Positions 8,898 to 27,822 of a stretch of DNA of 64,000 nucleotides are shown here, one piece after another. The stretch spans positions 130,659-194,658 of the forward strand of contig CAZSQS010000001.1 of the NCBI GenBank assembly GCA_964608995.1, read 5' to 3'. Numbering within the stretch: position 1 is the stretch's first letter; each line of letters begins with the position of its first letter. Under the pieces are notes generated by a model, which worked only from the letters and a program-made list of their open reading frames with translations, searched no databases and had not been told where the DNA came from. This DNA is from an uncultured Smithella sp. (GTDB lineage Bacteria; Desulfobacterota; Syntrophia; Syntrophales; Smithellaceae). Both the position numbers and the translations under genes were made by a program.

Positions 8898-9072
8898 TCA
8901 GCCCCGCCAGGAACTCGATTTGAAATTATCCGATTTTACATTACGCGCTTTTCGTATTGTTTTCACCGCTGTCAACGATAATCATGTTGACAAAATATTT
9001 TCTAACAGATAGCGTCTATAAAATTCCCGAGATTACAGTAAATTGCATAAAAATGTTTAAGGAGGCGCGTCA

Positions 9073-9414: not shown

Positions 9415-9462
9415 AATAAATCCATCAAACATATGGGATCGTAAAGCATTATAACTAATGCC

Positions 9463-10287: not shown

Positions 10288-10406
10288 CTCGCTTTCGAAC
10301 CTTCTGTTTTTGTCGAGGCGCATGACTTTTGGACTAGCTTAAGACCAAAATACGCTGCTTAGTCCAATCCTTGAAAAACCCACTTCAAAGGGTTACTATC
10401 CTCTTC

Positions 10407-10446
10407 CCACAATACGGGCGTTATGATGCCCGTATTGTGGTCTTTG
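10407..10446 (+). terminator. 13-bp perfect hairpin, probable intrinsic terminator
   Basis: CCACAATACGGGC-GTTATGAT-GCCCGTATTGTGG followed by TCTTTG. Confidence 0.6.
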
Positions 10447-10505
10447 CGTTGGCCTTGCCGACACCTAGGATCCACAAAAAACAGATTGACTTTAGACGCG
10501 ATATG

Positions 10506-10536
10506 TTTAACTATGCGGTTAAACCGAATGGTTAAA
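10506..10536. promoter_or_regulatory. Putative TetR operator (tandem inverted repeats) in the efflux operon promoter
   Basis: TTTAAC-TATGCG-GTTAAA overlapping AACC-GAAT-GGTT, just downstream of TTGACT (10486) and about 40 bp upstream of the TolC start; a TetR gene lies within the operon. Confidence 0.45.
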
Positions 10537-10571
10537 TCTGAATGGGCCACAATTTATTTGAGAGTAGCGAT

Positions 10572-11906: not shown

Positions 11907-11920
11907 AGGGGAGGTGCGGT

Positions 11921-12577
11921 TTGAACAGAAATGAAATGGATGCCCAGAAACGGACCCGGACGGCCGACAAGATCTTAACCGCGGCGCGCCAAACCTTTGC
12001 CGAATTCGGTTACAGCGGCACGTCTATGGACGAAATTGCCCGGCGCGCAGGCGTCAACAAGGCCACGCTTTACTACCAGATCGGCGACAAGGATACGCTC
12101 TATGGCGCCGTCATCCATTCAGTGATGGGCCATATCGCTAAAGGTGTCTCCGAGGTGGTGGCGCGGGCGCATGCGCCGGAAGAAAAACTTCGCGCCTATA
12201 TCGCCTTTATGGCCGACGCCATGGATCAAAATCCGGACTTGCCGCCCATCATGATCCGCGAGGTCGCCTCCGGCGGCGCGCATCTGCCGCGCCTGGCCGC
12301 CGAAGACATCGCCTCTGTTTTGACGGTGCTTATGGGGATTCTCGATGAGGGGAAAAAAAGAGGGGTCTTTGCCGACGTCGTTCCCTTTTTGCTTCACGCC
12401 ATGATTATGGGAACGACGCTGCTTTACAAACTGGGGACGCCGATCAAGGATCGGCAAATGTGGGTGCCGCGCGATCTCAAGGCGCGGGATAAAAAGATTA
12501 CGGGATCGCTGGGCGACGAAGTGGCGCGCCTGGTGCTTAAGGCGGTGAAAATAGAAACCGCATCGAAAACAGGTTGA
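11921..12577 (+). CDS. TetR/AcrR-family regulator (CecR-like position)
   Basis: ILTAARQTFAEFGYSGTSMDEIARRAGVNKATLYYQIGDKDTLY HTH; TTG start with GGAGG RBS. Confidence 0.93.
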   Translation: MNRNEMDAQKRTRTADKILTAARQTFAEFGYSGTSMDEIARRAGVNKATLYYQIGDKDTLYGAVIHSVMGHIAKGVSEVVARAHAPEEKLRAYIAFMADAMDQNPDLPPIMIREVASGGAHLPRLAAEDIASVLTVLMGILDEGKKRGVFADVVPFLLHAMIMGTTLLYKLGTPIKDRQMWVPRDLKARDKKITGSLGDEVARLVLKAVKIETASKTG

Positions 12578-12599
12578 TGATTCAACAAGGACAAACGCC

Positions 12600-13613
12600 G
12601 TGAAAAAAATAGTGGGAATAATCGTTCTGGGGCTCCTTTTGGTCAGCGTGGGGGCAGGGGTGTATTTTGGCCAGAAAAATAACCGGGCAGGCGAGCTTCT
12701 GTATTCCGGCACGATTGAGGCCACGGAGGTCACTCTGTCTTTCCAGGCGCCGGGCCGTGTGGCTGAGGTCTATGTCCAGGAGGGCCGTCGCGTGAAAAAA
12801 GGCGAGCTCCTGGCCGAGCTGGATCGCGCCGATTATGAAGCGCGCCACGCGCAGGCCCGGGCCAATCTGACCCGCGCTGAAAAAGCAAAACAACAGGCGC
12901 GCACAGCCCTGAATATCTATGAAAAAACACTTCCCGCCGAGGTCGCCCGCGCCGAAGCCGCGCTTGCCAGCGCAACGGATACGCTGGAAAACGCCAAAAA
13001 GAACTATCTGCGTTTTGAAGAATTATTTCAAAAAGGCGTCGTGTCGGAAAAAGAGCGCGACACGATGAAGCTAAGTTATGACCTCGCCGAGGCTCGCCTC
13101 GCCGAAGCGCAATCCCTTTTGCATTTAGCTAAGGGGAATCTGCCGCGCGCATTGGCGGCCAGGCAGGAGATTGAAGTTGCCGCCTCGCAAATTGAGGCGG
13201 CCCGGGCCGCCTTGCAGCAGGCGGCGGTTCATCTGGACTATACGCGGCTTTTATCGCCGCTTGATGGCGTGGTGACGAGCCGCGCCATTGAGCCTGGCGA
13301 AACCGTCGCTGTGGGGCGCGAAGTGATGACCCTTTCAGATCTTTCGCGGGTGGAGTTGAATATCTTTGTGGAAGAGACGCAAATCGGCCGAATTTCACCG
13401 GGGGCGAAAGCGCAGGTGACCATCGATACCTTCCCAGGGAAAGTTTATGAAGGCGTGGTGTCTTTCGTTTCACCCGAAGGCGAATTTACGCCGAAAATCA
13501 TACAGACGAAAAAGGAACGGGTGCGGCTGGTCTATCGCGTCAAGATCGCCATCGACAATCCGTCTTTGGAGCTTAAAACCGGAATGCCCGCCGACGCTGA
13601 GCTTAAACCCTGA
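12600..13613 (+). CDS. HlyD-family efflux adaptor (YbhG-like)
   Basis: N-terminal TM; SGTIEATEVTLSFQAPGRV, lipoyl halves, EGEFTPKIIQTKKERVRLVYRVK motif. Confidence 0.93.
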   Translation: MKKIVGIIVLGLLLVSVGAGVYFGQKNNRAGELLYSGTIEATEVTLSFQAPGRVAEVYVQEGRRVKKGELLAELDRADYEARHAQARANLTRAEKAKQQARTALNIYEKTLPAEVARAEAALASATDTLENAKKNYLRFEELFQKGVVSEKERDTMKLSYDLAEARLAEAQSLLHLAKGNLPRALAARQEIEVAASQIEAARAALQQAAVHLDYTRLLSPLDGVVTSRAIEPGETVAVGREVMTLSDLSRVELNIFVEETQIGRISPGAKAQVTIDTFPGKVYEGVVSFVSPEGEFTPKIIQTKKERVRLVYRVKIAIDNPSLELKTGMPADAELKP

Positions 13614-13626
13614 AAAAGAGGTGTCC

Positions 13627-14400
13627 ATGACCGCCTTGCCCGAACGACCCGCGTCGATGGTCAGCGTGCGCCACGTCTCCTGGCGCTACAAAGATGTTGA
13701 GGCCCTTGACGATATTTCTCTGGATGTGCCCAAAGGCAGTCTTTTTGGATTTGTTGGCTCCGACGGCGCGGGCAAATCCACCCTCTTGCGTTTGATTGCC
13801 ACACTGATGAAGCCCCGGCAGGGCAAAATCGTAGTGGATGGCCGCAACGTCGCCACCGAGGCGCGTTCGATCAAAAACATTCTCGGTTACATGCCCCAGC
13901 GATTCGGCCTGTATGCGGATTTGACCGTCGCAGAAAATTTTAATTTTTTTCTGGATGTCTTCGGTGTGGCCACCGCCTCCCGAAAAGCCATTCAAGAAAA
14001 GTATCTGGGGTTTTCCAATTTGCTGCCATTTGTTAACAGGCCCGCGGGGCAGCTTTCCGGCGGCATGAAGCAAAAACTGGGGCTGGCCTGCGTTTTGGCG
14101 CATGAGCCCCGGGTGCTGATTCTCGATGAGCCGACCAATGGTGTGGACCCCGTCTCGCGGCGCGAATTCTGGGATATCCTGCTTGGCATGAAAAAAGAAG
14201 GCATGACCCTCCTGGTGTCCACCGCGTATCTGGATGAGGCCAGGCTTTGCGACCAAATTGCGCTGATGCACCGGTCGGTCCTGCTCGATGTGGCGTCGCC
14301 CGACGTGCTGAGCGCGGGTTTTAAAACGTTGGAGGAAGCCGTTATTGCGCGTATTGTCGATGTAGATCAGGAGATTGAACATGACGCCTTCCTGTTCTGA
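13627..14400 (+). CDS. ABC transporter ATPase (YbhF N-half-like)
   Basis: Walker A GSDGAGKST, LSGGMKQ, LILDEPT; ATG 13627 preferred over the overlapping 13447 start. Confidence 0.92.
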   Translation: MTALPERPASMVSVRHVSWRYKDVEALDDISLDVPKGSLFGFVGSDGAGKSTLLRLIATLMKPRQGKIVVDGRNVATEARSIKNILGYMPQRFGLYADLTVAENFNFFLDVFGVATASRKAIQEKYLGFSNLLPFVNRPAGQLSGGMKQKLGLACVLAHEPRVLILDEPTNGVDPVSRREFWDILLGMKKEGMTLLVSTAYLDEARLCDQIALMHRSVLLDVASPDVLSAGFKTLEEAVIARIVDVDQEIEHDAFLF

Positions 14401-15136
14401 CGCCATCTGCGTCGAAAATCTGGAGAAACGTTTCGGAAATTTTATCGCGGTGAACAAAATCAGCTTTCAGGTGAAGCAAGGTGAAATCTTCGGCTTTCTG
14501 GGCGCCAACGGTTCCGGTAAATCCACGACGATCCGGATGCTGTGCGGTATTATGACGCCCACGTCGGGCGCGGGCCGGGTGGCCGGATTCGACATCGTCC
14601 GGCAGCCGGAAAGTGTCAAACAGGCCATCGGCTATATGTCGCAGAAATTTTCTTTGTATGAAGATTTAACGCCGTTTGAAAATCTGCGCTTTTACCTGGG
14701 CGTTTACAGTGTTTCTCCATCCTTGTGGACCGAGCGCATCGCGGGGGTGTTAAAGATGACACGGCTCGAGGAGGCGCGCCATCGGTTGACGCGGGAGCTG
14801 CCGCAAGGCCTGCGCCAGCGGCTGGCTCTGGGCTGCTCGCTTCTGCACCAGCCGAAAGTGTTGTTTCTCGATGAACCGACCTCCGGCGTCGATCCGGTCA
14901 CACGCCGGCGCTTCTGGGCCTTTATCGCGCAAATCGCCGGCAGCGGCACAACCGTTTTCGTAACCACGCATTACATGGATGAAGCGCAGTTTTGCGGGCG
15001 CATCGTCATGATTAACGCAGGCGACATTGTGGCTTCCGGAACGCCGCAGGAAATTATTGCATCCGCCTGCCCCGGCCGTCCCGAGGCCGATTTGAATGAC
15101 GCGTTTATCGCGCTGATGACGAGGTGCCCGTCTTGA
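14381..15136 (+). CDS. ABC transporter ATPase (YbhF C-half-like)
   Basis: GANGSGKST, LPQGLRQR signature variant, LFLDEPTSGVDP, TTHYMDEA; AGGAG RBS before ATG 14381. Confidence 0.92.
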   Translation: MTPSCSDAICVENLEKRFGNFIAVNKISFQVKQGEIFGFLGANGSGKSTTIRMLCGIMTPTSGAGRVAGFDIVRQPESVKQAIGYMSQKFSLYEDLTPFENLRFYLGVYSVSPSLWTERIAGVLKMTRLEEARHRLTRELPQGLRQRLALGCSLLHQPKVLFLDEPTSGVDPVTRRRFWAFIAQIAGSGTTVFVTTHYMDEAQFCGRIVMINAGDIVASGTPQEIIASACPGRPEADLNDAFIALMTRCPS

Positions 15137-16266
15137 ACCCGACGCGACTAAAAGCCATTCTCCGCAAGGAAGTCTTTCATCTTCTTCGAGACACCCAGAG
15201 TCTTTCTCTGGCTTTTGCCGTGCCGCTCGTTTTGATTGTCCTTTTCGGCTATGCGCTTTCCCTGGATGTGGATCAGGTGAAAACAGTTGTCGTGGATTCC
15301 GATCGCTCTTCGGCAAGCCGCGATTTCATCCGCCGCTTCGAGGCGTCAACATATTTTTCTGTTGATGGGTATCTGAGCCGGTCGAAAGATGCTATTGGCG
15401 TACTCGACCGCGACGAGGCGAAGGTCGTCCTCATCATTGGCCCGGATTTTGGAAAAAATCTTCAGGCGGATCGCGAAGCGCGCGTGCAGGTTCTCCTGGA
15501 AGGCAGCGACCCCAATTACGCAGGCATCGTCCGCGGCTACCTCACTGCGCTCGTCGAACAGTATAATCAGAAATTATTGGTCGAGTATTTAAACCGCCGG
15601 GGAATGGAACCCATTTCGCCGCCGGTGGAGGGCCGCATCCGCATCTGGTTTAACGAGGATCTCCAAAGCCGCAACTTCATCGTTCCGGGCATCATCGCCA
15701 TCATCATCATGATTGTGGGCGCGCTTTTGACGTCGCTCATCATCGCGCGCGAGTATGAGCAAGGCACGATGGAGACGCTCAAGTCCCTGCCGCTTAGCGC
15801 AGGCGAGCTTCTGCTGGGAAAGGCGCTGCCCTATTTTGGAATCGGTTTTGCCGATGTGTTGATCGCCATGCTGGGCGGGCAGATTCTTTTTGGCGTGGTG
15901 ATGAAAGGTTCTTTTGGGATCATGATGCTGGCCACCACGCTGTATTTGTGCGTGGCGCTGGCGTTGGGCCTCACCATCTCCACGCTGACGAAGTCGCAGC
16001 TTGTCGCCAATCAGGCGGCCATTTTAATCACCTACCTGCCGTCGGTGCTGCTTTCCAATTTTGTTTTCCCGATTGCCAACATGCCGAAGTTTCTGCAGGC
16101 CATCACGTATATCGTTCCGGCAAGATACTACATTGACATTCTGGGCGGCCTGTATCTGCGCAACACGAACTTAGCCTACCTGTGGCCGAGTCTGGCGGTG
16201 CTGGCCCTGATGGCCGCGGGGTTGACCGCCATCAGTTATCTGCTTTTGAAGAGGGAAGGGCTATGA
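15124..16266 (+). CDS. ABC-2 permease (YbhS-like)
   Basis: LRKE...LFGYALSLDV, IWFNEDLQSRNFIVPG, AREYEQGTMETL, C-terminal TMs. Confidence 0.92.
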   Translation: MPVLNPTRLKAILRKEVFHLLRDTQSLSLAFAVPLVLIVLFGYALSLDVDQVKTVVVDSDRSSASRDFIRRFEASTYFSVDGYLSRSKDAIGVLDRDEAKVVLIIGPDFGKNLQADREARVQVLLEGSDPNYAGIVRGYLTALVEQYNQKLLVEYLNRRGMEPISPPVEGRIRIWFNEDLQSRNFIVPGIIAIIIMIVGALLTSLIIAREYEQGTMETLKSLPLSAGELLLGKALPYFGIGFADVLIAMLGGQILFGVVMKGSFGIMMLATTLYLCVALALGLTISTLTKSQLVANQAAILITYLPSVLLSNFVFPIANMPKFLQAITYIVPARYYIDILGGLYLRNTNLAYLWPSLAVLALMAAGLTAISYLLLKREGL

Positions 16267-17384
16267 GCGCTCTGAGAATTCGGGAACTGGTGCGCAAGGA
16301 ATTTCTTCAGCTTTTTCGTGACAAGCGAATCCGGATGGTGCTTTTTGTGGCCCCCTTTCTGCAGATGCTGGTTTTCGGCTATGTGGTCAATTACGACATC
16401 CGCAACATTTCGATGGCGTTTCTGGACTATTCGCACACGGCTGAAAGCCGCCGTCTGGCCGAGGCTTTCACGGGCGGCCGCATTTTTGCGATCAAGCAGT
16501 ATTTAAAGGATGAGCGCGAGCTCGAAGAGGCGCTCCTGCGGGGAAAGGTGGATATGGCGGTGGTGGTGGGCCCCGATTTTGCAAATCGTATCCGCAAAGG
16601 CCAAAGCGCCGCCGTGCAGATTCTCGCCGATGGCTCGATGAGCAATATGGCCTCGATGCGCATGGCCTACACGATGAGCGTTCTGGAAAAATACAACCGC
16701 GAGATGCTCAGGGAGCTCTATCCGATGTCCATGTCGTATGGCCGAGTGGATGCGCGCCTTCGCGCCTGGTACAACCCGAACCTCGACAGCCGGCACTTTT
16801 TTGTTCCGGGAATTGTCGCCTTCCTGGTCATGCTGTTGTCGCTCCTTTTGACGTCAATTGCGATCATCCGGGAAAAAGAAGCGGGCACGATGGAGCAGTT
16901 GATCGTGACCCCGATAACGGCGGTTGAACTGATCATCGGCAAGACCATCCCCTATATTATTGTGTCTCTGGGGCAAATGATGGCGGTCATTGTGGTGGCG
17001 ATCCTCTGGTTTGATATTCCGCTTCGGGGCAGCATTCCCTTGCTGCTTTTCGCCTCGTGTCTGTTTTTACTGAGCACACTGGGCATCGGGCTTTTTATTT
17101 CGACCGTCTCCACGACGCAGCAGCAGGCGATGATGGCCACCTTCATGATCATCCTGCCCTTTTTTATGCTGAGCGGTTTTGTTTTCCCTATCGCCAATAT
17201 GCCCGAGGGAATCCAGTGGCTGACGCTTTTAAACCCGCTTCGCTATTTTCTGGTGATTATCCGCGGAATCTTTCTCAAGGGGGTGTCGCTGGAGGTGCTC
17301 TGGCCGCAGTTTCTGGCGCTGGCCATTTTGGGCATCATCGTTTTTTCCGGCGCGATGCTGCGCTTTAAAAAGCGTTTGGATTAA
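16263..17384 (+). CDS. ABC-2 permease (YbhR-like)
   Basis: ATGA overlap with the previous stop; WYNPNLDSRHFFVPG, IIREKEAGTMEQLIVTP. Confidence 0.92.
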   Translation: MSALRIRELVRKEFLQLFRDKRIRMVLFVAPFLQMLVFGYVVNYDIRNISMAFLDYSHTAESRRLAEAFTGGRIFAIKQYLKDERELEEALLRGKVDMAVVVGPDFANRIRKGQSAAVQILADGSMSNMASMRMAYTMSVLEKYNREMLRELYPMSMSYGRVDARLRAWYNPNLDSRHFFVPGIVAFLVMLLSLLLTSIAIIREKEAGTMEQLIVTPITAVELIIGKTIPYIIVSLGQMMAVIVVAILWFDIPLRGSIPLLLFASCLFLLSTLGIGLFISTVSTTQQQAMMATFMIILPFFMLSGFVFPIANMPEGIQWLTLLNPLRYFLVIIRGIFLKGVSLEVLWPQFLALAILGIIVFSGAMLRFKKRLD

Positions 17385-17457: not shown

Positions 17458-18180
17458 TTATTCCTTTACTTCTGGTGGCGCCTCGGAGACGTCCAGAAGC
17501 TCCACTTCATAGATCAGCAGGCTTCCGCCCGGAATGACGGGCGGATTTCCCATGTCGCCATAGGCGGTCTCCGGCGGGCAGTAAAATTTTGCCTTGCCGC
17601 CGACTTTCATGAGTTCCACACCTTCCGAAAAACACTGCAGGATTTGTCCCACAATATACTCCGAGGGCTTCTCGCGTTTGTAAGTGCTGTCAAATTCCTT
17701 TCCATTGATAAACGTGGCCGTGTAGTGAACCTTAATTTGCTTGCCTTCGGTGGGTTTGGCTCCGGCGCCCGCCGATATTTCCTGAAAAACAACACCCGAG
17801 GCGGTTTTTTTTGCGCCTTTTTCCGAGGCGGCTTTTTTGAGATACTCAAGCGCGGCCGCTTTGCGCTTTTCACGGCGCTCATCGATAATTTTGCGAAGTT
17901 GCGGCATGCTGGCGTCCGGTTCCGTGGCCAGTTTGTTGCCCGCCACCGCATCGGCCAGCCCCATTTGAACATATTTCCCCTCTTCGGGTGTCAGTTCCAG
18001 CTGGTAGGCGTCTCGATGCATAAACACTCCCAGCGAATAAAAGGCCTTCTCGTCGTCGTTTTTCAGAACGATCTCTGAGGCCTTGTCCTTTGCCTCCTTC
18101 GCAGAAGGCGCAGGAGATTGAGAGCAGGCGCACAAAACCGAGAGGGCGACTACAATCATCATCATGTTCCGGATCATCAT
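17458..18180 (-). CDS. FKBP-type peptidyl-prolyl isomerase (FkpA/Mip-like), lipoprotein signal
   Basis: LSVLCAC lipobox; VKVHY-like IKVHYTATFINGKEFDSTYKR; MKVGGKAKFYCPPETAYG...IPGGSLLIYEVELL. Confidence 0.93.
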   Translation of the reverse strand: MMIRNMMMIVVALSVLCACSQSPAPSAKEAKDKASEIVLKNDDEKAFYSLGVFMHRDAYQLELTPEEGKYVQMGLADAVAGNKLATEPDASMPQLRKIIDERREKRKAAALEYLKKAASEKGAKKTASGVVFQEISAGAGAKPTEGKQIKVHYTATFINGKEFDSTYKREKPSEYIVGQILQCFSEGVELMKVGGKAKFYCPPETAYGDMGNPPVIPGGSLLIYEVELLDVSEAPPEVKE

Positions 18181-18332: not shown

Positions 18333-18365
18333 AAAAAAATCCGGGTGGATTTTCATCCACCCGGA
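18333..18365 (-). terminator. Intrinsic terminator of hydrolase copy 1
   Basis: Minus strand CCGGGTGGAT-GAAA-ATCCACCCGG followed by ATTTTTTT. Confidence 0.85.
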
Positions 18366-18421: not shown

Positions 18422-19438
18422 CTAGATGCCGGAGGTTCTCCACGTCAAAGCGTCGCTCGGTCTCTTGATGTAAGTCTTCCAGCGGGTGTCGCCATCGAGA
18501 TACGTCTTCTGGAAGGCCAGGGCCAGAGCGCCTGCGTTCGGTGCGAAAACCGTATCCGGCCCGCCCCAATCAAAGTGACCGGCAATCGAGATGACATAAA
18601 GCGCTTTTGGAATACCGCGCGGAATCGCGTTGTAAACGCTTTCCGACTGATACATGCCGCCCAGAACCGTCAAATCCGTTGCGCCGTTCATGAGCAGCAT
18701 CGGGCACTTGGTGTAGCGGCCGCTTTTGTAAATACTGGTTGCGGACAGGTTGTGGCCCGCCAGAGACATGGCCGTTTTCGGACCGGTTTTGGCTGCGTTA
18801 ATCCAGGTGGCGCCGCCGCCCATCGACCAACCCAACAACCCGATTCTGCTGGTGTCGAGTTTGCCCTTAAGCGCATGGCCGTTGCGGGTGTTGAGTTTCT
18901 TGAGCGCATTGTAGGCGCTCCACTGCAGGGAGGCTCTCAGATCCACGGTATCCATCGTGGTGGCCGAATCGCAGTTCACATAAACGATGCCGTGCGAGGC
19001 AAAGAAGGGGCCCCAGTCGGAGTTCGCCGCCTGTGTTCCCATGAAGGGCTGCATGAAGATGAGGGCGGAGAAAGGCGGCGTGGCGTTTTGCGGAATGTAG
19101 ATGGACGCGCTGGCTGTAAATCCGGGGAAGTCACTGGTTCTGCTGGAGCCGTAAGGGCCGCTTTTGCTTGTCGATTTTGGTGTATCATCGCGGCAGATCG
19201 CGCCTGCGGGGCATCCGGGAATCGATCCGGACGAGCTCGATGAACTGGACGAACTCGATGAGCTCGTGGAGTACCACCACGACGAACCTGACGACGAACT
19301 GGACGAACTCGATGAACTGGAGGAACTGGTGGAGAACCACCACTGGGCATCACAGGTTGACGCGGTTGCGCCCGCTAAAAACAGGCACACAAACGACAGA
19401 ATTAAAAAACTCGTAACTGACTTTCTTTTCATAACCAT
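18422..19438 (-). CDS. Secreted PETase/cutinase-like (polyesterase-lipase-cutinase family) alpha/beta hydrolase, copy 1, with WW-polySer N-terminal tether (homologous start 19432)
   Basis: Signal peptide; WGPFFASHG, GKLDTSRIGLLGWSMGGG nucleophile elbow, NGATD (Asp), AGHF (His), LDGDTRW. The motifs are collinear with Ideonella PETase (WGPRLASHG, GKVDTARMGVMGWSMGGG, MDNDTRY), recalled from memory. Confidence 0.88.
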   Translation of the reverse strand: MVMKRKSVTSFLILSFVCLFLAGATASTCDAQWWFSTSSSSSSSSSSSSSGSSWWYSTSSSSSSSSSSSSGSIPGCPAGAICRDDTPKSTSKSGPYGSSRTSDFPGFTASASIYIPQNATPPFSALIFMQPFMGTQAANSDWGPFFASHGIVYVNCDSATTMDTVDLRASLQWSAYNALKKLNTRNGHALKGKLDTSRIGLLGWSMGGGATWINAAKTGPKTAMSLAGHNLSATSIYKSGRYTKCPMLLMNGATDLTVLGGMYQSESVYNAIPRGIPKALYVISIAGHFDWGGPDTVFAPNAGALALAFQKTYLDGDTRWKTYIKRPSDALTWRTSGI

Positions 19439-19648
19439 TTCCCTTCCGTTGAATGATAAGAGTTTTTTTGTTTTCGCGGCCCTTGCACTCTAATCCTCAG
19501 ATGGCAAAGTTCGCCCCTTTACGCGTTGTCTGTTTTCGGCCTTGGCTGACCCCCTGTTTCCAATAGTCCCTTTATCTCAAATAATAAAGTGGTAACGCTG
19601 TTTCGTTTTTACTATTTCCTGCAAATATTTAAATATATTTTATAAAAT

Positions 19649-19664
19649 TGCATGAAGTGTGCCA
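19649..19664 (-). promoter_or_regulatory. Sigma-54 (-24/-12) promoter of hydrolase copy 1
   Basis: Minus strand TGGCACACTTCATGCA = GG-N10-GC with TGGCAC; about 210 nt upstream of the start. Confidence 0.8.
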
Positions 19665-19760
19665 TGTTTGCTATAGTCATGTTATGTATCTGTATCTTTT
19701 AACGTATTTAATTATACGATGAACGGACGTTCATTTTTGCTTTTCAAAACCGTCTCAAAA

Positions 19761-19813
19761 GTGTTTCGTAAAAATTAAAAATGGGACACAAAATGGGACA
19801 CATTGTGGGGCGT
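19761..19813. promoter_or_regulatory. Candidate enhancer (UAS) array for a sigma-54 activator, copy 1
   Basis: GTGTTTC at 19761; ATGGGACAC at 19781 and 19793 (12-bp period); degenerate third unit at 19805. Confidence 0.6.
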
Positions 19814-19880
19814 TTTATCCGGACGCAGGCATTTCCCGACCTTTCAGTGAGGCTTGTCACGCAAAAAATTGTCACAAAGT

Positions 19881-19915
19881 AAAAAAATCCGGGTGGATGT
19901 GAAATCCACCCGGAT
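19881..19915 (-). terminator. Intrinsic terminator of hydrolase copy 2
   Basis: Minus strand ATCCGGGTGGAT-TTCAC-ATCCACCCGGAT followed by TTTTTTT; homologous to 18333-18365. Confidence 0.85.
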
Positions 19916-19965
19916 GGGGTTTATACCTCTATATGAAAGCAGAGGGGTTGTAAGGTTGACCGGGT

Positions 19966-20958
19966 CTAGATGTCGGAGCTTCTCCACGTCAAGGAATCGA
20001 GCGGTCTCTTGATGTAAGTCTTCCAGCGGGTGTCGCCATCGAGATACGTCTTCTGGAAGGCCAGGGCCAGAGCGCCTGCGTTCGGTGCGAAAACCGTATC
20101 CGGCCCGCCCCAATCAAAGTGACCGGCAATCGAGATGACATAAAGCGCTTTTGGAATACCGCGCGGAATCGCGTTGTAAACGCTTTCCGACTGATACATG
20201 CCGCCCAGAACCGTCAAATCCGTTGCGCCGTTCATGAGCAGCATCGGGCACTTGGTGTAGCGGCCGCTTTTGTAAATACTGGTTGCGGACAGGTTGTGGC
20301 CCGCCAGAGACATGGCCGTTTTCGGACCGGTTTTGGCTGCGTTAATCCAGGTGGCGCCGCCGCCCATCGACCAACCCAACAACCCGATTCTGCTGGTGTC
20401 GAGTTTGCCCTTAAGCGCATGGCCGTTGCGGGTGTTGAGTTTCTTGAGCGCATTGTAGGCGCTCCACTGCAGGGAGGCTCTCAGATCCACGGTATCCATC
20501 GTGGTGGCCGAATCGCAGTTCACATAAACGATGCCGTGCGAGGCAAAGAAGGGGCCCCAGTCGGAGTTCGCCGCCTGTGTTCCCATGAAGGGCTGCATGA
20601 AGATGAGGGCGGAGAAAGGCGGCGTGGCGTTTTGCGGAATGTAGATGGACGCGCTGGCTGTAAATCCGGGGAAGTCACTGGTTCTGCTGGAGCCGTAAGG
20701 ACCACTCTTGCTTGTTGATTTTGGTGTATCCTCGCGGCAGATCGCGCCTGAGGGACATCCGGGAATCGATCCCGACGAACTCGATGAGCTCGATGAACTG
20801 GTGGAATACCACCACGTTGAACCTGATGATGAGCTCGATGAGCTGGAGGAACTGGTGGAGAACCACCACTGGGCTTCACAGGTTGACGCGGTTGCGCCTG
20901 CTAAAAACAGGCACACAAACGACAGAATCAAAAGGTTTTTAACTGACTTTCTTTTCAT
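19966..20958 (-). CDS. Secreted PETase/cutinase-like alpha/beta hydrolase, copy 2
   Basis: Same motifs as copy 1; catalytic core identical; shorter Ser runs; different C-terminal tail (RPLDSLTWRSSDI versus RPSDALTWRTSGI). Confidence 0.88.
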   Translation of the reverse strand: MKRKSVKNLLILSFVCLFLAGATASTCEAQWWFSTSSSSSSSSSSGSTWWYSTSSSSSSSSSGSIPGCPSGAICREDTPKSTSKSGPYGSSRTSDFPGFTASASIYIPQNATPPFSALIFMQPFMGTQAANSDWGPFFASHGIVYVNCDSATTMDTVDLRASLQWSAYNALKKLNTRNGHALKGKLDTSRIGLLGWSMGGGATWINAAKTGPKTAMSLAGHNLSATSIYKSGRYTKCPMLLMNGATDLTVLGGMYQSESVYNAIPRGIPKALYVISIAGHFDWGGPDTVFAPNAGALALAFQKTYLDGDTRWKTYIKRPLDSLTWRSSDI

Positions 20959-21188
20959 AAATTTTTCCTTCCATCTGAAATAATAAATGATGAATTTCCC
21001 CTTTGCGCAGGCCTCGCTCTCTCATCCTTCAGATCGCCGGGGCTGCCCCTTCTACGCGTTGCCCTCTCAGGTTCCAGGCAATATCAATCGCTATTTTGAC
21101 TGATCTTACCAATAAACAATCTCAAACAATCCGCATGCAGAATTGTTGTGATTGCTCACTGGCCTATCTTATTATTGTCAATATTGTA

Positions 21189-21204
21189 GGCACGATGTAT
21201 GCCA
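21189..21204 (-). promoter_or_regulatory. Sigma-54 (-24/-12) promoter of hydrolase copy 2
   Basis: Minus strand TGGCATACATCGTGCC = GG-N10-GC; same offset to the upstream repeat array as in copy 1. Confidence 0.7.
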
Positions 21205-21300: not shown

Positions 21301-21353
21301 GTGTTTCATGAATGTCTAAAATGGGACACTTCGTGGGACACAATTTGAGACAT
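21301..21353. promoter_or_regulatory. Candidate enhancer (UAS) array, copy 2
   Basis: GTGTTTC at 21301; ATGGGACAC 21321, GTGGGACAC 21333, TTGAGACAT 21345 (12-bp period). Confidence 0.62.
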
Positions 21354-21560
21354 TTTATTGCGGGTCTTGCAGATTAGACTGTTGATTTGAACGAGATGTT
21401 GCGATTCCATTAAAACTGAAAAAGCGGCCATTGAAAAATTTCAACTGGCAAATGAGTCTCAAATATGTTTCAGTTTGTTGCACTTAAAAATATTAGAAAA
21501 CATAACGAAGGCCGAACGAAAACCCTCTTTTCAGGCGGTAAAAAGGAGAATTCAAAGAAC

Positions 21561-23723
21561 ATGGCCATCAATGTCAAGGAAGAAGCGCCATTATTACAGA
21601 TTGACAGTTTTTCCCTGAAAGATAATACGGAAAACATATCATCCGGATGGGATAAAATGCTGGTGGATGCCATCGACCCCTCTTCGGTCAGCATTCAGGA
21701 TCTCGTCAGCATTGTGCTTTGGTTTCTGGAAAAAACACAGGACGAATGGACGCGGTTCGTCAACGGGGCCGATGATCTGGAGAGTTCCGTCATTCCCGAT
21801 CATATTGCCGAGGCCTGGGGGCGGTGCCGCAGCCGCCGGATGGACCCTTTCATAACGGAGGCGCAAAATCAGGTTTTAACCGGGCAGGCGCTCGAGGCGC
21901 TTCTGACGCAAAACAGGACCCTGATTGAAATCAGCAGGCCCTTCATCACCAAACTTTTCCAATGCACCAATACCACAAGCTTTGGCGTGGCGCTTTTCGA
22001 CCGCGAGGGCTATCTTCTGGACGTTCAGTCGGATGAGCGGTTTGTCTCGGACAACGACAAAACCCGATGGATCTGCGGGGCGCGCTGGGCGGAGCAGGAC
22101 GCCGGGAATAATTCCATCGATTACGTGCTGCGTTATGGAAAGCCGATCCAGGTCCTGTGCACGCAGCATTACCTTCAGCGCCTCAAGGAGGTCACGGCGT
22201 CAAGCGCGCCCATTCATGATCCCGAAGGCGTTTTAATCGGCGGCGTGGCGCTGACCACCTTTTATTTCGGTACGCATCCCCACACACTGGGCATGGCGGT
22301 GGCCGCCGCCCAGGCCATTGAAAATGAGTTGCGCATCACGAAGGCCTTTGCCGAATGCCGGCGGGCTTTTTTTCAGGCGGATATGGCCTACGGCCTGCAA
22401 AAGGCGATTACCGACGCCATGACGGATGCGATTGTCGCCGTAAATACCGAAGGGCGGATCACGGCGATCAATCCCCGCGCCGAACATCTTTTTGGCCTGG
22501 ATTGTGAGGATGTGAAGGGAAAACATCTTCTGGATATCTATCCCGGCGCGGATAACCGCTATTTCTGGGATATTCTGCGCTCCGGCCAGGCCGTAAGCGA
22601 TGCGGAAGTGCAAATCCGCACCCTTTCGGGGAGGGGGGATTATACGCTGACGTGCAATCGCATCCTGTCTTCCGATGGCGCCGCTATCGGCAAAGTGCTG
22701 ATCTTTTCGGAAATTCGGAAAATCAAGTCTCTGGTCAACCGGTTTTCCGGCGCCAGAGCCAATTTCAAGTTTTCCGACATTCAGGGGAAAAACGAGAAGT
22801 TTCGGGCTCTGATCGATCAGGCGGGGATGATTTCAAAAAGCGCCTCCAATGTTTTGCTCCTTGGAGAAAGCGGCTCCGGCAAGGACATTCTGGCGCAGGC
22901 CATTCATAACGAAAGCCCCCGTGCAGACGGGCCCTATATCGCCATCAACTGCGCGGCCATTCCCCGCGATCTCATTGCCAGTGAGCTGTTCGGTTATGAT
23001 GAGGGCGCGTTTACCGGTTCGCGGCGCGGCGGCAATCAGGGAAAATTCGAACTGGCCGACGGGGGCACGATTTTTCTCGATGAAATCGCGGAAACCCCAC
23101 TGGAGCTTCAAGCGGCGCTTCTGCGCGTCATTGAAGACAAGTGCGTGGTCCGCATCGGCGGCAATTCCAACCGGGTGGTGGATGTCCGGATTATCGCCGC
23201 CACCAATAAGGACCTCTTCGAGGAGGTTTCCCGGGGCAATTTCCGCAAGGATTTGTATTTCCGGCTCAACGTGTTCAATCTTCATTTGCCGCCGCTTCGC
23301 GAGCGGACGGACGATATTGCGCTTTTAGTGGAGATATTCATGAAGAAGTATGCGTCCAAAATGGGGAAGTCCCTTCGCGGGGTGGATGATCGGGTGTGGG
23401 AGGTTTTTTTGCAGCATGCCTGGCCGGGCAATATCCGCGAGCTTCAAAATGTCGTGGAGCGCATGGTCAACTTTGCCACATCGGAGCGGTTAACGTATGA
23501 CCTTATTCCGCCCGAGATTACGGGGGTGGCTCGAAAATCCTACGGCAAACTCGATCTGGAATCGCCCGTGGAAACGGAAAAAAGGATGATCCGGCACATG
23601 CTGACGCTTCGCTACAGCCGCCAGAAAATTGCAAAACAGCTTAACGTGTCGCGCGCGACGCTGTTTCGGCGAATGCGCAAATACGGCCTGCTGGAAAAAG
23701 ACTTTCCACAAGATGCGCCCTGA
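21561..23723 (+). CDS. Sigma-54-dependent enhancer-binding protein, GAF-PAS-AAA+-Fis HTH (AcoR/DhaR-like)
   Basis: IAEAWGRCRSRRMDP GAF start, LLLGESGSGKD, ASELFGYDEGAFTGS, LADGGTIFLDEI, RKDLYFRLNV, WPGNIRELQN, IAKQLNVSRATLFRRMRKYG; AAGGAG RBS before ATG 21561. Confidence 0.95.
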   Translation: MAINVKEEAPLLQIDSFSLKDNTENISSGWDKMLVDAIDPSSVSIQDLVSIVLWFLEKTQDEWTRFVNGADDLESSVIPDHIAEAWGRCRSRRMDPFITEAQNQVLTGQALEALLTQNRTLIEISRPFITKLFQCTNTTSFGVALFDREGYLLDVQSDERFVSDNDKTRWICGARWAEQDAGNNSIDYVLRYGKPIQVLCTQHYLQRLKEVTASSAPIHDPEGVLIGGVALTTFYFGTHPHTLGMAVAAAQAIENELRITKAFAECRRAFFQADMAYGLQKAITDAMTDAIVAVNTEGRITAINPRAEHLFGLDCEDVKGKHLLDIYPGADNRYFWDILRSGQAVSDAEVQIRTLSGRGDYTLTCNRILSSDGAAIGKVLIFSEIRKIKSLVNRFSGARANFKFSDIQGKNEKFRALIDQAGMISKSASNVLLLGESGSGKDILAQAIHNESPRADGPYIAINCAAIPRDLIASELFGYDEGAFTGSRRGGNQGKFELADGGTIFLDEIAETPLELQAALLRVIEDKCVVRIGGNSNRVVDVRIIAATNKDLFEEVSRGNFRKDLYFRLNVFNLHLPPLRERTDDIALLVEIFMKKYASKMGKSLRGVDDRVWEVFLQHAWPGNIRELQNVVERMVNFATSERLTYDLIPPEITGVARKSYGKLDLESPVETEKRMIRHMLTLRYSRQKIAKQLNVSRATLFRRMRKYGLLEKDFPQDAP

Positions 23724-23778: not shown

Positions 23779-26373
23779 TCAGTTTGCCGCCATGGCTTGG
23801 TTCACCTTGCAAACCAGATTTCGGAGGCTGAAGGGTTTTTGCAGAAACTGCACGCCCTCTTCGAGGATGCCGTGACGGGCGATGGCGTCGGCGGTATAGC
23901 CCGACATGAACAGCACCTTGATGTCCGGCCGGATTTCAACCAGTTTGTCTCTTAATTCCCGGCCGCTCATCACCGGCATGACCACGTCGGTGATCACCAG
24001 ATCAATGCAGGTGGCTCTGTCTTGACACAGTGTGATGGCCTCTTGGGGCGTCTGGGGAACCGTGACGGCGTAACCGATGGATTCCAGCATATTTTTCGTG
24101 GCTTCCAAAACCATTCCATCATCTTCCACCAGCACAATGTTTCCCGTTGCCGAAAAGACCGGTTCTTCCGGAATCGCCTGATCGGCAATTTTTATTTCGG
24201 TGGTGCGCGGGAAGTAGATCGTGAAGGTGGTTCCCTGCCCCGGTTCGCTGTAAACGGAAATAAACCCGTCATTTTGCTTGACGATGCCGTAAACGGTGGC
24301 CAGTCCCAGCCCTGTGCCCTTGCCCGCTTCCTTCGTCGTAAAGAAGGGCTCAAAAATATTTTGCTGCATGTCCTTATTCATGCCGACGCCGTTGTCGCTG
24401 ACGCACAGCTGAACGTAGTAGCCGGGTTTCGCGCCGATATGCGCGCGGCAATAGGCCGCGTCCAGCACACAGTTGGCCGTTTCAAGCGTCAGCTTGCCGC
24501 CTGCGGGCATCGCATCCCGGGCGTTGACGGCGAGGTTCATGAGGATCTGTTCAACCTGTGACGGATCGAGTTTGATGGCCCAGAGGTCCTTGCCGGGCGC
24601 ATACTTGAACTGAACATCCTCCCCGATGAGGCGCACCAGCGCCTTTTGCGTATGTGAAACCAGATCGTTGAGATTGATAATTTTCGGGGCGATGATCTGC
24701 TTTCGGGAAAAGGCCAGAAGCTGGGCGGTAATATCGCGGGAACGGATGGCGGCTTTTTCAATTTCCGTGATATCTCTGAGCACGGGATGCTGCTGGGGCA
24801 GGCGCATCTTGGCCAGATCCACATAGCCCAGAATGACGCTCAACATGTTATTGAAGTCATGCGCCACGCCGCCGGCCAGCCGTCCGACGGTTTCCATCTT
24901 TTGCGCCTGGAGCAGTTGGCGCGCCAGTTTTTCTTTTTCTTCAACGGCCCGTCTGCGGGCGGTGATGTCCCGGCCCGCAAGCAATATGCCTGTGGGCCGT
25001 CCTGTATCGCTGCGGGAGAAGGTGGCCGAAACCTCCAGCCAGAGCGTATCGCCGTTTTTATGGTTCAGTTCCATTTCAACGGTTCTGATGCGGTGCGAAT
25101 CCAGGGAGGGGCCGCCCGCTTCACGGGCCAGCGCCGACGCCAGCGCGCTTTTGGCCGATGCGAAGGACTCCGGCGTTAAAAGCCGGTCCATCGGGATGTT
25201 CTCCATGTCTGCGGGCGTATAGCCGGTCAGCCATTTGCACGACGGACTGACGTATGTGCAGTTCAGATCAAGATCCGTCGTCAGGATGATCTCGTGGATG
25301 TTTTCAACGATCATCCGGTAGCGCTGTTCGCTTTCGCGCAGGGCCATCTCCATGGCCTTTTGTTCCGTGATTTTTCGGCCGACCAGGACGATTTCAAAGG
25401 GCCGGCCATGCGCATCGCGGTGAAAATAGGCTGTGAGCTCCTGCCAGAAAGTATGGCCGTCCTTGTGATACATCTCCAGTTCCACACTGACGGACGGCTG
25501 GGGCGCACGCGACGCGCCTTCGCCGAATTCCCGGTCGAAGGCGTCCGCCAGCATTCTTTCCGCCAGCGCATAAGAGGCGGGCGTCATCATTTGATTGAAA
25601 GGCAGGGCGATGGCTTCATCGGGGGTGAAGCCGCTGAAACGGATTTCCGACGGGCTGACGTAAGTCAGGTTGAGCTCGAGATCCATCGTGGAGATCGAAT
25701 CATGCATGTTTTCGATAATCAAGCGGTAGCGCTTTTCGTTGGCCTTGATCATTTCTTCCGTCTGTTTTTGGCGGGTAATGTCCCGCGCGACACCGACGAT
25801 CTCCAGGGGCGCGCCGTTTTCATCCAGGTGAAGCTCGGCGCTGACTTCCGCCCAGAAGCGCTCTTTGTTTTTCTTGGTGATCTGTGTTTTGAAAACGACT
25901 TTTGCGGGGTGTTGACTGCCGCTATGGGCGCAGGCCAGCTCCGAATCCAGGAGCGCCTGCGCTTTGGACCGGGCATCTGGCGGCAGGATATCTTGAATGG
26001 ACTCTCCCAGAAGATCATCGGGACGGACCCCCGCGATGGGCAGGACCGACGGACTGACATACGTTAACCGCCAGTTCAAATCCGCGGTCCAGATGATGTC
26101 AAGCGTGTGATCGGCAATCAGCCCGAGCTGCTTGTCGCGCTCCTGGACGGAACGCTCCGCCCAGGCTTTTTGAGCGGCGTCCTCTTTCAGGCGGGTGCTT
26201 TCAGCGTTATTTTGCGCTGCGGCCGCAAGGCAGGCATTGACGGCCCCGGCGATGGCCCCGAGTTCGTTATCGCCTGCCGTAAAGGACAGCCGGCCTGCGT
26301 AGTCGCCTTTTGCCGCTTTTTCAAGGGATTCAATGATTTGCTTCGCCAGATCCGTCTTGCGTGATGATGTCAT
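23779..26373 (-). CDS. Cytoplasmic hybrid histidine kinase (HAMP-like, 3x PAS, HisKA/HATPase, REC)
   Basis: GGVAHDFNNML H-box, [33 protein letters not shown]; no TM helix evident. Confidence 0.93.
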   Translation of the reverse strand: MTSSRKTDLAKQIIESLEKAAKGDYAGRLSFTAGDNELGAIAGAVNACLAAAAQNNAESTRLKEDAAQKAWAERSVQERDKQLGLIADHTLDIIWTADLNWRLTYVSPSVLPIAGVRPDDLLGESIQDILPPDARSKAQALLDSELACAHSGSQHPAKVVFKTQITKKNKERFWAEVSAELHLDENGAPLEIVGVARDITRQKQTEEMIKANEKRYRLIIENMHDSISTMDLELNLTYVSPSEIRFSGFTPDEAIALPFNQMMTPASYALAERMLADAFDREFGEGASRAPQPSVSVELEMYHKDGHTFWQELTAYFHRDAHGRPFEIVLVGRKITEQKAMEMALRESEQRYRMIVENIHEIILTTDLDLNCTYVSPSCKWLTGYTPADMENIPMDRLLTPESFASAKSALASALAREAGGPSLDSHRIRTVEMELNHKNGDTLWLEVSATFSRSDTGRPTGILLAGRDITARRRAVEEKEKLARQLLQAQKMETVGRLAGGVAHDFNNMLSVILGYVDLAKMRLPQQHPVLRDITEIEKAAIRSRDITAQLLAFSRKQIIAPKIINLNDLVSHTQKALVRLIGEDVQFKYAPGKDLWAIKLDPSQVEQILMNLAVNARDAMPAGGKLTLETANCVLDAAYCRAHIGAKPGYYVQLCVSDNGVGMNKDMQQNIFEPFFTTKEAGKGTGLGLATVYGIVKQNDGFISVYSEPGQGTTFTIYFPRTTEIKIADQAIPEEPVFSATGNIVLVEDDGMVLEATKNMLESIGYAVTVPQTPQEAITLCQDRATCIDLVITDVVMPVMSGRELRDKLVEIRPDIKVLFMSGYTADAIARHGILEEGVQFLQKPFSLRNLVCKVNQAMAAN

Positions 26374-26512
26374 GCGACCAGTACCCGTTTTTATTAAGTT
26401 ATCGGATGCAGGCGCGCTGAACTTAAGTAACGTATGAAAAAAATGGCGGATTGCTTACCCGGATTGACTGTGATAATGCCTCGAATCATTACATTCGGGG
26501 CATGAACATAAA

Positions 26513-27790: not shown

Positions 27791-27822
27791 CGTCGAGCCA
27801 AACGCTCCTTTTTCAGACCGGC

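Follow-up and report, generated by a model that had tools for sequence, protein, structure and literature searches.

The described hydrolases of poly(ethylene terephthalate) (PET) to which the genes reported here come closest are sorted into types. In type I enzymes there is a single disulfide, at the C-terminus, and the extended loop is absent (criteria of Joo et al. 2018, cited after PMC12442448), type II enzymes have two disulfides, an extended loop and an aromatic clamp, and type III enzymes, which are without the full clamp, still hydrolyse PET weakly (PMC12442448). A second scheme defines functional PETases by the motif M5, made up of the clamp Trp, [PG]-G-[YF], S-M and DxDxR(Y)xxFxC with the disulfide Cys, and only enzymes with M5 were PET-active in that study (PMC12224614). 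Searches for plastic degraders usually take any match to PF12740, or any match of the dienelactone hydrolase (DLH) kind, as a candidate PETase. Here we describe a tandem pair of genes from an uncultured Smithella sp., located on a stretch of 64,000 nucleotides (contig CAZSQS010000001.1, positions 130,659 to 194,658; called the window in the following). Judged by their sequences the encoded proteins are members of PF12740 but of no named PETase type; they appear to be cutinase-type serine esterases for which a PETase-like action is doubtful. We consider it probable that the two genes code for secreted serine carboxylesterases or lipases of a PETase/cutinase-like fold with a polar subsite I, that they are regulated by sigma-54, act on a natural ester substrate and represent a distinct subfamily.

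The initial annotation had drawn attention to a hybrid active-site signature at 18422-19170. This observation is confirmed as genuine and lies well past chance. The interval is that of the catalytic domain but not the whole open reading frame (ORF), and no strand had been given; all five peptides quoted lie within a single minus-strand ORF of 338 amino acids (aa) at 18422..19438. Its parts, together with the second copy, are as follows.

18422..19438, minus strand: hydrolase gene copy 1, 338 aa plus stop, with signal peptide, WW-polySer module and PF12740 catalytic domain
19358..19438, minus strand: predicted signal peptide MVMKRKSVTSFLILSFVCLFLAGATAS (MVMKRKSV...LAGATAS, about aa 1-27), recognised by inspection, cleavage between ATA and S or after CDA
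19223..19345, minus strand: low-complexity module QWWFST-S14-GS / SWWYST-S12-GS, aa 32-72, from the sequence
18425..19222, minus strand: catalytic alpha/beta-hydrolase domain, aa 73-338, beginning at the C76-x5-C82 pair (AlphaFold2, Foldseek and conserved columns)
aa 128-134, minus strand: FMQPFMG, copy 1
aa 203-209, minus strand: GWSMGGG, copy 1
aa 225-231, minus strand: SLAGHNL, copy 1
aa 251-265, minus strand: NGATDLTVLGGMYQS, copy 1
aa 286-292, minus strand: AGHFDWG, copy 1
18824..18826, minus strand: predicted catalytic Ser205 in G-W-S-M-G (alignment)
18749..18754, minus strand: His229-Asn230 (His229 at 18752-18754) replacing Trp185-Asp186 of IsPETase, invariant in the subfamily (alignment)
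18674..18676, minus strand: predicted catalytic Asp255, followed by the invariant loop L-x2-LGG-x2-QS (alignment)
18647-18649, minus strand: Gln264 in the loop after the Asp (alignment)
18575..18577, minus strand: predicted catalytic His288 in AGHFDW (alignment)
19966..20958, minus strand: hydrolase gene copy 2, 330 aa plus stop, 97% aa identity to copy 1, predicted triad Ser197/Asp247/His280

The profile PF12740 ("PETase") matches the two copies with 98.6 and 98.3 bits at a cut-off of 28 (E=5.2e-28 for copy 1, about 5e-28 for both). The best single-sequence match in the PDB (phmmer) is PE-H, entry 6sbn, with E=3.6e-25, and dozens of IsPETase entries are found at about 1e-21, the matches to the two enzymes spanning 1e-25 to 1e-20. 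When a profile of the subfamily was used instead, IsPETase variants ranked first (E about 1e-49 to 1e-45), with PE-H and IsPETase together ranging from 1e-49 to 1e-42. An AlphaFold2 model of residues 71-338, calculated from a 64-sequence alignment, reached a predicted local distance difference test score (pLDDT) of 95.3 and a predicted template modelling score (pTM) of 0.93. Foldseek superposed it on IsPETase and PE-H in the PDB with a template modelling score (TM) of 0.80-0.86, a root-mean-square deviation of 2.3-2.6 A and 26-28% identity. Thus, a model of high confidence follows IsPETase over the whole fold, and the residues proposed as the triad stand in invariant columns.

For the comparison of single residues an alignment with IsPETase, LCC and TfCut2 was made by MAFFT; all residue correspondences given here refer to it. 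The IsPETase sequence used has the residues known from the literature at every position compared (Y87, W159, S160, M161, W185, D186, C203, D206, S214, H237, S238, C239, C273 and C289). The triad S160, D206 and H237 corresponds to S205, D255 and H288, and the elbow and oxyanion positions W159, M161 and Y87 correspond to W204, M206 and F132. The columns of triad and elbow are invariant over the subfamily plus the three reference enzymes. The Trp in front of the nucleophile is indeed kept (G-W-S-M-G), just as first reported. Subsite I and the residues packing against it are altered: W185 is aligned to H229, again as reported, D186 to N230, S214 to Q264 and I218 to V268, and the residue following the catalytic His, S238 in IsPETase, is F289. 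The disulfides of the family, already stated to be absent, are indeed missing, with G252, D290, K325 and I338 in the columns of C203, C239, C273 and C289. Copy 1 has Cys only at positions 18, 29, 76, 82, 156 and 245, so that the surroundings of the catalytic His and the C-terminus are free of Cys. Two further statements were correct in part. The change from PGY to QPF is true for copy 1, but QPF is restricted to the closest Smithella-type clade, and elsewhere the sequence reads PP[YF], with an aromatic residue kept at the position of Y87. The loop behind the catalytic Asp is Gly-rich, with an invariant LGGxxQS, but longer by a single residue only. Overlooked were the N-terminal Cys pair C76 and C82 (CPxxAIC) and the tandem copy at 19966..20958.

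Measured against the three types, the window protein fits none. In comparison with type I, the C-terminal disulfide is lacking (K325 and I338 in those columns), the post-His loop has the three residues that are missing in LCC and TfCut2 plus one more, and Trp204, not His, precedes Ser205. Two features of type II are present, the extended loop after the catalytic His and the Trp before the nucleophile (W204). Its two disulfides are not (G252/D290 and K325/I338, the Gly in the C203 column being invariant in the subfamily sample), and of its aromatic clamp F132 is kept but W185 is replaced by His229 in 64/64 aligned subfamily members. Type III differs at the nucleophile box and at its Thr and Tyr positions, where the window protein has G-W-S-M-G, Phe132 and His229; HaloPETase1 (9hl5) and PmC were outside the 60 best PDB matches in both sequence and profile searches, which type II enzymes led, and type III was compared by description only. 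As to M5, checked by the text description of the motif and not by the authors' exact PHI-BLAST pattern, S-M is the only element present: AGH stands for the clamp Trp, Q-P-F for [PG]-G-[YF], and DGDTRWKTYIKR is without the Cys. Therefore, the scheme of PMC12224614 would label the window protein a 'pseudo-PETase'. The subfamily is not rare. The value for enzyme mining expected by the initial annotation has to be tempered for PET, as published motif criteria would place the subfamily among non-PET enzymes.

Three groups of described enzymes were considered as possible members of the same clade and rejected. Divergent Microbulbifer 'PETases' that group with HaloPETase1 (PMC13234336) had suggested membership in type III, but the box and the positions of Y87 and W185 differ, and 9hl5 is not among the top PDB matches. 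Among the Ketobacter PETases (403/409/412 and KsPETase), the clamp Trp is retained in KsPETase, which has been assigned to type II, and in the K. alkanivorans enzyme (Trp201, Trp205), and three disulfides have been reported for PETase 403; these are a different paralog from the Ketobacter members described below. The polycaprolactone depolymerase Ag0826 is type III-like, with 51% identity to HaloPETase1.

The substitutions are shared by many relatives, and the comparison supports a coherent subfamily on a separate branch and not a peculiarity of one gene. A word-seeded search with the catalytic domain gave 244 proteins at E<=1e-5, mostly 50-70% identical, which, where a name is given, are mostly called 'dienelactone hydrolase family protein'. 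Across a 64-sequence alignment of homologs (47-67% identity) the segments G-W-S-M-G-G-G-A-x-W-I, A-G-H-N, G-x2-D-x3-L-G-G-x2-Q-S-x2-V, H...W..P and L-A-F-x-K-x2-L-x-G-D-x-R-W are invariant. The deviations from IsPETase are equally fixed, namely His-Asn for W185-D186, Gln for S214, Gly for C203 and the loss of C273/C289. The N-terminal motif C-P-x-x-A-I-C-R is conserved, its Cys columns being not strictly invariant. From these sequences the signature CPxxAIC...GWSMGGGA...AGHN...D-x3-LGGxxQS...GH was derived, and we refer to its bearers as the AGHN clade. A profile search of 1.84 billion representatives yielded 1982 family matches at E<=1e-3, 144 of them at E<=1e-30. In the key columns of the top 150 of these 1982, the combination CC/[FY]WSM/AGH[N]/GD/LGGxxQS/H..W was found in about 30 clusters at 50% identity, and lower-scoring relatives have Pro-Trp again at the clamp position. 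In a crude neighbor-joining tree with LCC as outgroup and capped distances, 32 of 33 His-bearing sequences appear in one clade, at a modest bootstrap of 19/30; midpoint-rooted trees and trees from uncapped distances did not recover it. Within the limits of the libraries searched, no characterised or solved member of the clade was found in the PDB or in the literature. The distinct subfamily proposed in the initial annotation is thus supported, and so is, as far as sequences can tell, the different substrate cleft proposed with it. The sequences themselves are already public under generic names. What the analysis adds is the signature and its spread, the failures in the type tests, and three features described below: an association with lipase chaperone genes, gene arrays next to an enhancer-binding protein (EBP), and the WW-polySer module.

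In a scan of one genome per species, 51 loci were found. The nearest ones (56-75% identity) belong to metagenome-assembled genomes (MAGs) of Smithella, Smithellaceae and Syntrophaceae; the Smithella MAG CAZGDK01 has at least 7 genes on 6 contigs, and one complete Smithellaceae chromosome has 3. Other hosts are Syntrophothermus, Syntrophomonadaceae, Desulfatitalea, Ketobacter and other Pseudomonadales, Microbulbifer, Teredinibacter, Gynuella and Halioxenophilus, and furthermore Vibrio ruber, Clostridium, Acetivibrio, Anaerosacchariphilus and Myxococcota. Smithella, Syntrophomonadaceae, Syntrophothermus, Desulfatitalea and Ketobacter are degraders of fatty acids or alkanes. DNA of the window is present in metagenomes from wastewater, bioreactors, manure and food fermentation. 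The nearest homologs and these habitats suggest a digester-dwelling syntroph of the Smithella group as the most likely host.

Two unusual domain arrangements were seen among relatives. A Bacillota MAG (L039, 5905-7866) has two PETase-like domains in one protein of 653 aa, and a Myxococcales locus (L054, 4651-6741, = P0159) encodes a fusion of a pectin-acetylesterase domain with a PETase-like domain that bears the Trp and lies outside the AGHN clade.

By homology, Ser205 in the G-W-S-M-G elbow would be activated by His288 and Asp255, and the backbone NH groups of Met206 and Phe132 would form the oxyanion hole. The invariant His-Asn takes the place of the clamp Trp185 and its neighbour, and an invariant Gln occupies the residue that packs against the clamp position (S214 in IsPETase; His in TfCut2 and LCC), which suggests a polar subsite I and not an aromatic clamp. 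Where both family disulfides are lost, the short N-terminal CPxxAIC pair, probably a small disulfide loop, is conserved. The natural substrate would not be PET but another ester, with lipid or aliphatic (poly)ester material as the most plausible candidate. Within the esterase reading we give this substrate class an even chance at best, or slightly less, with a glycan-linked ester as the main alternative. The acids released could nourish a syntroph of the Smithella group that oxidises fatty acids and lives in anaerobic digesters. Each gene is likely to be a transcription unit of its own, in which a leader of about 225-245 nt separates the sigma-54-type promoter from the ORF and a terminator follows, and the adjacent PAS-containing EBP probably switches the genes on upon a small-molecule signal. 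Of these points, the membership in the family, the conservation of the motifs and of the subfamily, the arrangement in tandem and the conserved synteny with the EBP are shown here, whereas secretion, catalytic competence, control by sigma-54 and the class of substrate are predictions. The elements on which this view of the locus is built, and the gene behind copy 1, are the following.

21465..23723, plus strand: divergent gene for a sigma-54 EBP with N-terminal sensor region, PAS, AAA+ Sigma54_activat, AAA_lid and helix-turn-helix domains (Pfam)
21322..21341, minus strand: direct repeat GTGTCCCA-N4-GTGTCCCA upstream of the copy 2 promoter
21190..21204, minus strand: weaker sigma-54-like element TGGCATacatcGTGC, TGGCAT-N5-GTGC, 246 nt upstream of the copy 2 ATG, 3 mismatches
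19887..19915, minus strand: intrinsic terminator hairpin plus T-run after copy 2 (hairpin scan, duplicated repeat)
19782..19801, minus strand: direct repeat GTGTCCCA-N4-GTGTCCCA of copy 1, a candidate activator-binding site
19650..19664, minus strand: sigma-54-like -24/-12 element TGGCACacttcATGC, TGGCAC-N5-ATGC, 226 nt upstream of the copy 1 ATG, 1 mismatch to TGGCAC-N5-TTGCA
18340..18365, minus strand: intrinsic terminator hairpin plus T-run after copy 1 (hairpin scan, duplicated repeat)
17458..18180, minus strand: FKBP-type peptidyl-prolyl isomerase with lipoprotein-like signal (…LSVLCACSQ), downstream of copy 1 with the terminator between (Pfam)

Copy 2 is located 527 bp upstream of copy 1 on the same strand, and the repeat unit of about 1544 bp includes promoter region and terminator. 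Codons 95-327 are identical in DNA (699 nt, 18458-19156 and 20002-20700); the 12 differing codons, 6 of them synonymous and 6 not, are all at the two ends. The pattern suggests a very recent duplication or else recent gene conversion. The 713-nt contig 19319-20031, which bridges the spacer between the beginning of copy 1 and the end of copy 2, was found in 4/4 independent public runs, and therefore the tandem arrangement is real. The core shared by both copies appeared in public runs as one contig with 6-13 variant letters.

Control of both copies by sigma-54 is predicted because of the position of the elements, their duplication and the adjacent EBP gene, and we regard it as a well-motivated inference. 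The direct repeats are located about 120 nt further upstream of each sigma-54-like element, and a similar pair, GTGGGACA, occurs in the related locus L001. The window EBP is orthologous to its counterparts at the hydrolase genes of the Smithella loci L006 (57% identity over 672 aa) and L001 (47% over 650 aa), the sensor region included. EBP genes adjoin the hydrolase in 18/56 loci, nearly all of Smithella type, and these Smithella-type loci have arrays of 2-4 tandem hydrolase paralogs, often with a DUF3541-like gene. Sigma-54-like elements were recognised by eye in L001 (TGGCACaaacaTTGTA) and L006 (two TGGCAT-N5-xTGCT) and by the strict consensus scan in L018 (TGGCACatgtaTTGCT). The leaders of about 210-230 nt (19439-19650 and 20959-21189) contain a partly conserved CAACGCGTA[AG]A(A)GGGGC...; an Rfam scan of 17-22 kb at E<=1 gave no match to a leader RNA or riboswitch.

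A separate observation concerns L006, where two repeats precede the hydrolase at 5140-5610, each with a sigma-54-like TGGCAT-N5-xTGCT, about 50-90 conserved nt and a strong terminator hairpin. These units may be small sigma-54-dependent RNAs or remnants of a duplicated leader.

Conserved neighbours give further hints on function. A Lif-type chaperone gene (PF03280, E down to 2e-26; NF002334 'lipase secretion chaperone') stands about 100-1000 bp from the hydrolase in ten loci (L013, L024, L026, L027, L029, L030, L031, L034, L038 and L055). The hosts are four Microbulbifer, one Teredinibacter, one Gynuella, two Halioxenophilus, the Smithella locus L013 and an unclassified Proteobacteria MAG (L055). 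No classical lipase was found near these ten loci, the neighbours being AraC or LysR regulators, a GDSL protein, GH3 and others, and no literature linking foldases to PETase-like enzymes was found. To our knowledge the Lif steric chaperone has so far been described for lipases of family I.1/I.2 only. The FKBP gene follows the hydrolase also in L006 (6907-7620) and L043 (472-1341) from a related Smithella MAG, at 61-63% identity. This arrangement may be mere local synteny, or the isomerase may assist folding. Vibrio members (L048, L051, P0118) carry N-terminal ricin/CBM13-like lectin domains. Taken together, the Lif loci, the FKBP gene, the lectin domains, the fatty-acid and alkane-degrading hosts and the polar pocket favour a secreted carboxylesterase or lipase on a natural ester.

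In Ketobacter/Pseudomonadales-type loci (L014, L017, L019, L021, L023, L025, L033), the gene directly behind the hydrolase encodes a conserved protein of 225-270 aa with a membrane segment at the N-terminus and a helical (coiled-coil) region rich in Glu and Gln. The protein has no Pfam match and only a weak one to the NCBIfam LIC_20245 family. A divergent Lif was considered for it and rejected (hhalign probability 6%).

Several points weigh against the reading as a sigma-54-regulated esterase or lipase for a natural ester. The geometry of Ser205, Asp255 and His288 would follow from the alignment and the superposition of the whole fold and not from distances. The database entry for the window protein, P0001, is shortened to 210 aa. 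In the related loci, the strict sigma-54 consensus (<=1 mismatch) is found in L018 only and most relatives are without it; window-wide, sigma-54-like patterns are not above chance, and the element of copy 2 has 3 mismatches. A search of RNA runs for expression was uninformative, with only 4-5% of words in three runs. No Lif homolog was found in any frame of the 64-kb window. The hints on the substrate, guilt by association throughout, are mixed, since Lif points to a lipase and the ricin/CBM13 fusions point to a glycan-associated substrate. Finally, the type III enzymes without full clamp still hydrolyse PET weakly, and by this analogy the loss of the Trp would not exclude some polyester activity.

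Among the alternatives, a true lipase dependent on a steric chaperone, comparable in function to family I.1/I.2, is possible although rather unlikely. Its substrates would be long-chain acylglycerols or wax esters, and it would fold in the periplasm with the help of Lif in gammaproteobacteria and perhaps of FKBP here. The ten Lif loci without another lipase nearby, the FKBP lipoprotein gene behind the hydrolase in the window, L006 and L043, and hosts that beta-oxidise fatty acids or alkanes agree with this idea. However, the window has no Lif gene, the Lif genes elsewhere are often divergent or convergent and not co-transcribed, and the FKBP link is seen in two genomes only and behind a terminator. 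Furthermore, no lid domain is evident in the cutinase-like fold, and there is no sequence relationship to family I.1/I.2.

Broader and, we think, unlikely as a whole is the proposal that the entire AGHN clade represents a new functional class. It would comprise disulfide-free lipases or polyesterases that depend on folding helpers and have a polar His-Asn-Gln subsite I; gammaproteobacteria would have recruited Lif, and in syntrophic Smithella the expansion into sigma-54-driven tandem arrays, with at least 7 genes in one MAG, would enable strict anaerobes that oxidise fatty acids to degrade ester-linked lipids or aliphatic polyesters directly in digesters. The WW-polySer N-terminus would serve as a tether to the cell envelope or to the surface of hydrophobic substrates.

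We judge it quite improbable that the clade consists of carbohydrate esterases, that is acetyl- or feruloyl-type deacylases for plant or algal polysaccharides. The invariant His, Asn, Gln and Ser around the pocket would suit sugar-linked esters, the lectin fusions are found in three Vibrio members, Microbulbifer, Teredinibacter, Gynuella, Clostridium manihotivorum and Acetivibrio degrade polysaccharides, and a GH3 gene adjoins the Microbulbifer loci. But we know of no polysaccharide degradation by Smithella or by syntrophic fatty-acid oxidisers, the neighbourhood in the window is without genes for carbohydrate-active enzymes, the Lif association indicates a lipase, and the pectin-acetylesterase fusion involves the Trp-bearing relative outside the clade.

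A genuine hydrolase of PET or other aromatic polyesters, a fourth PETase type in which His229 stacks in place of Trp185 and Phe132 keeps the other half of the clamp, is very doubtful. It is true that IsPETase and PE-H are the closest solved structures, that the W-S-M elbow is kept together with an aromatic residue in the Y87 column and a post-His loop of type II length, that type III PETases degrade PET without canonical clamp or M5 motif, and that the relative P0059 is automatically annotated as 'Poly(ethylene terephthalate) hydrolase'. Against this stand the replaced clamp Trp with polar His-Asn and Gln invariant at subsite I, the missing stabilising disulfides, and the failure in [PG]-G-[YF] and in DxDxR..FxC of M5, where only M5 enzymes were PET-active (PMC12224614). 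The hosts include strict anaerobes and syntrophs, and the clade extends over several distantly related phyla, both of which argue for an old natural substrate.

That the duplication is an artefact of assembly, or that the genes are an inactive relic, as could be suspected from the identical central 699 nt, the shortened database gene call, an in-frame TAG in the polySer linker of the L006 ortholog and the negligible evidence for expression, is hardly credible in view of two intact ORFs with complete triads, the spacer between the copies in 4/4 public runs, the tandem arrays of 2-4 paralogs usual in related Smithella loci, and a promoter-like element and terminator for each copy.

Between signal peptide and catalytic domain, the two hydrolases of the window have an N-terminal module of two WW[FY]-ST-polySer-GS units; in copy 2 it is located at 20767-20871 on the minus strand. 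In the alignment most homologs are without it, and among 268 homologs a module of one unit (QWWWFSTSSSSSSGG or QWWT-polySer) was found in P0012 and L006 (5920-5990) only, both of Smithella type. This lineage-specific module is possibly a tether, flexibly linked, to the envelope or a substrate surface.

In many Myxococcota members, a clear lipobox and a linker rich in Gly and Ser take the place of WW-polySer. The database gene calls P0001 (210 aa) and P0010 (211 aa, a Smithella ortholog) begin at the internal Met of MQP[FY]MG. These calls drop the signal peptide, the linker and the first beta-strands, and therefore automated surveys would overlook the secreted full-length enzymes.

The surroundings of the locus within the window (4011-17384 and 23779-29856) are rich in genes for signalling and efflux.

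4011-8897: DUF1638-PAS-histidine kinase-receiver-Hpt-GGDEF protein, 1628 aa
10542-17384: efflux cluster of OEP / TetR / HlyD / two ABC ATPases / two ABC-2 permeases
23779-26373: PAS hybrid kinase
26513-27790: MFS transporter
27823-29856: 7TMR-DISM GGDEF protein

No genes for the catabolism of lipids or polyesters were seen beside the hydrolases in this neighbourhood.

The AGHN clade is a sizeable and phylogenetically broad branch that has kept the PETase elbow, rebuilt subsite I and dropped both stabilising disulfides. With the elbow kept and subsite I rebuilt, it is a useful negative or contrast case for the motif-based prediction of PETases and offers new cleft geometries for engineering. 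If the association with Lif is functional, the clients of lipase foldases would extend to a different hydrolase fold subclass, and this would explain potential failures in heterologous expression. The Smithella-type esterase arrays, predicted to be under sigma-54 control, would bear on the first hydrolytic step for lipids and polyesters in anaerobic digesters. Established knowledge is not overturned; the value of these findings is moderate until the substrate is found and would be higher if foldase dependence or an unusual substrate were shown.

Among known systems, the Lif-dependent lipases of family I.1/I.2 (Pseudomonas aeruginosa and Burkholderia LipA with LipH/Lif) resemble the AGHN relatives in being secreted alpha/beta-hydrolases, and ten relatives have Lif beside them. 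However, the window protein has no sequence relationship to these lipases, its fold is cutinase-like without an evident lid, and Lif is not in the window. Much closer in fold is IsPETase (type IIb; PDB 5xjh, 6eqd), with a Foldseek TM of 0.81-0.86, Ser-Asp-His in the same columns, G-W-S-M-G, an aromatic residue at the position of Y87 and a loop of type II length after the catalytic His. At 26-28% identity, the window protein departs from it by His-Asn for W185-D186, Gln for S214, Phe for S238, the loss of both C203-C239 and C273-C289, and one additional residue after the catalytic Asp. The N-terminal CPxxAIC pair, the WW-polySer module and the sigma-54 context are further differences. PE-H from Halopseudomonas aestusnigri (type IIa, 6sbn) has, like the window protein, the G-W-S-M-G elbow, Phe at the oxyanion/clamp position and an aromatic residue after the catalytic His, but keeps the clamp Trp and, as type IIa, two type II disulfides, neither of which is found here (classification according to PMC12442448). 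LCC and TfCut2 (type I) share the fold, the triad, the Phe after the catalytic His and the lack of an active-site disulfide. They differ from the window protein in all of four other features: His before Ser, the clamp Trp, a C-terminal disulfide and a post-His loop shorter by three residues. The type III enzymes (HaloPETase1, PDB 9hl5; PmC; dsPETase05; Ag0826) are similar in having a PETase fold without the canonical pi-stacking clamp or the family disulfides, and in their origin from non-model environmental bacteria. Yet they have G-H-S-Q-G, Thr at Y87, Tyr at W185 and two disulfides elsewhere, whereas the window protein has G-W-S-M-G, Phe, His and one N-terminal Cys pair. The half of the clamp that is lost in the window protein is the opposite of that lost in type III.

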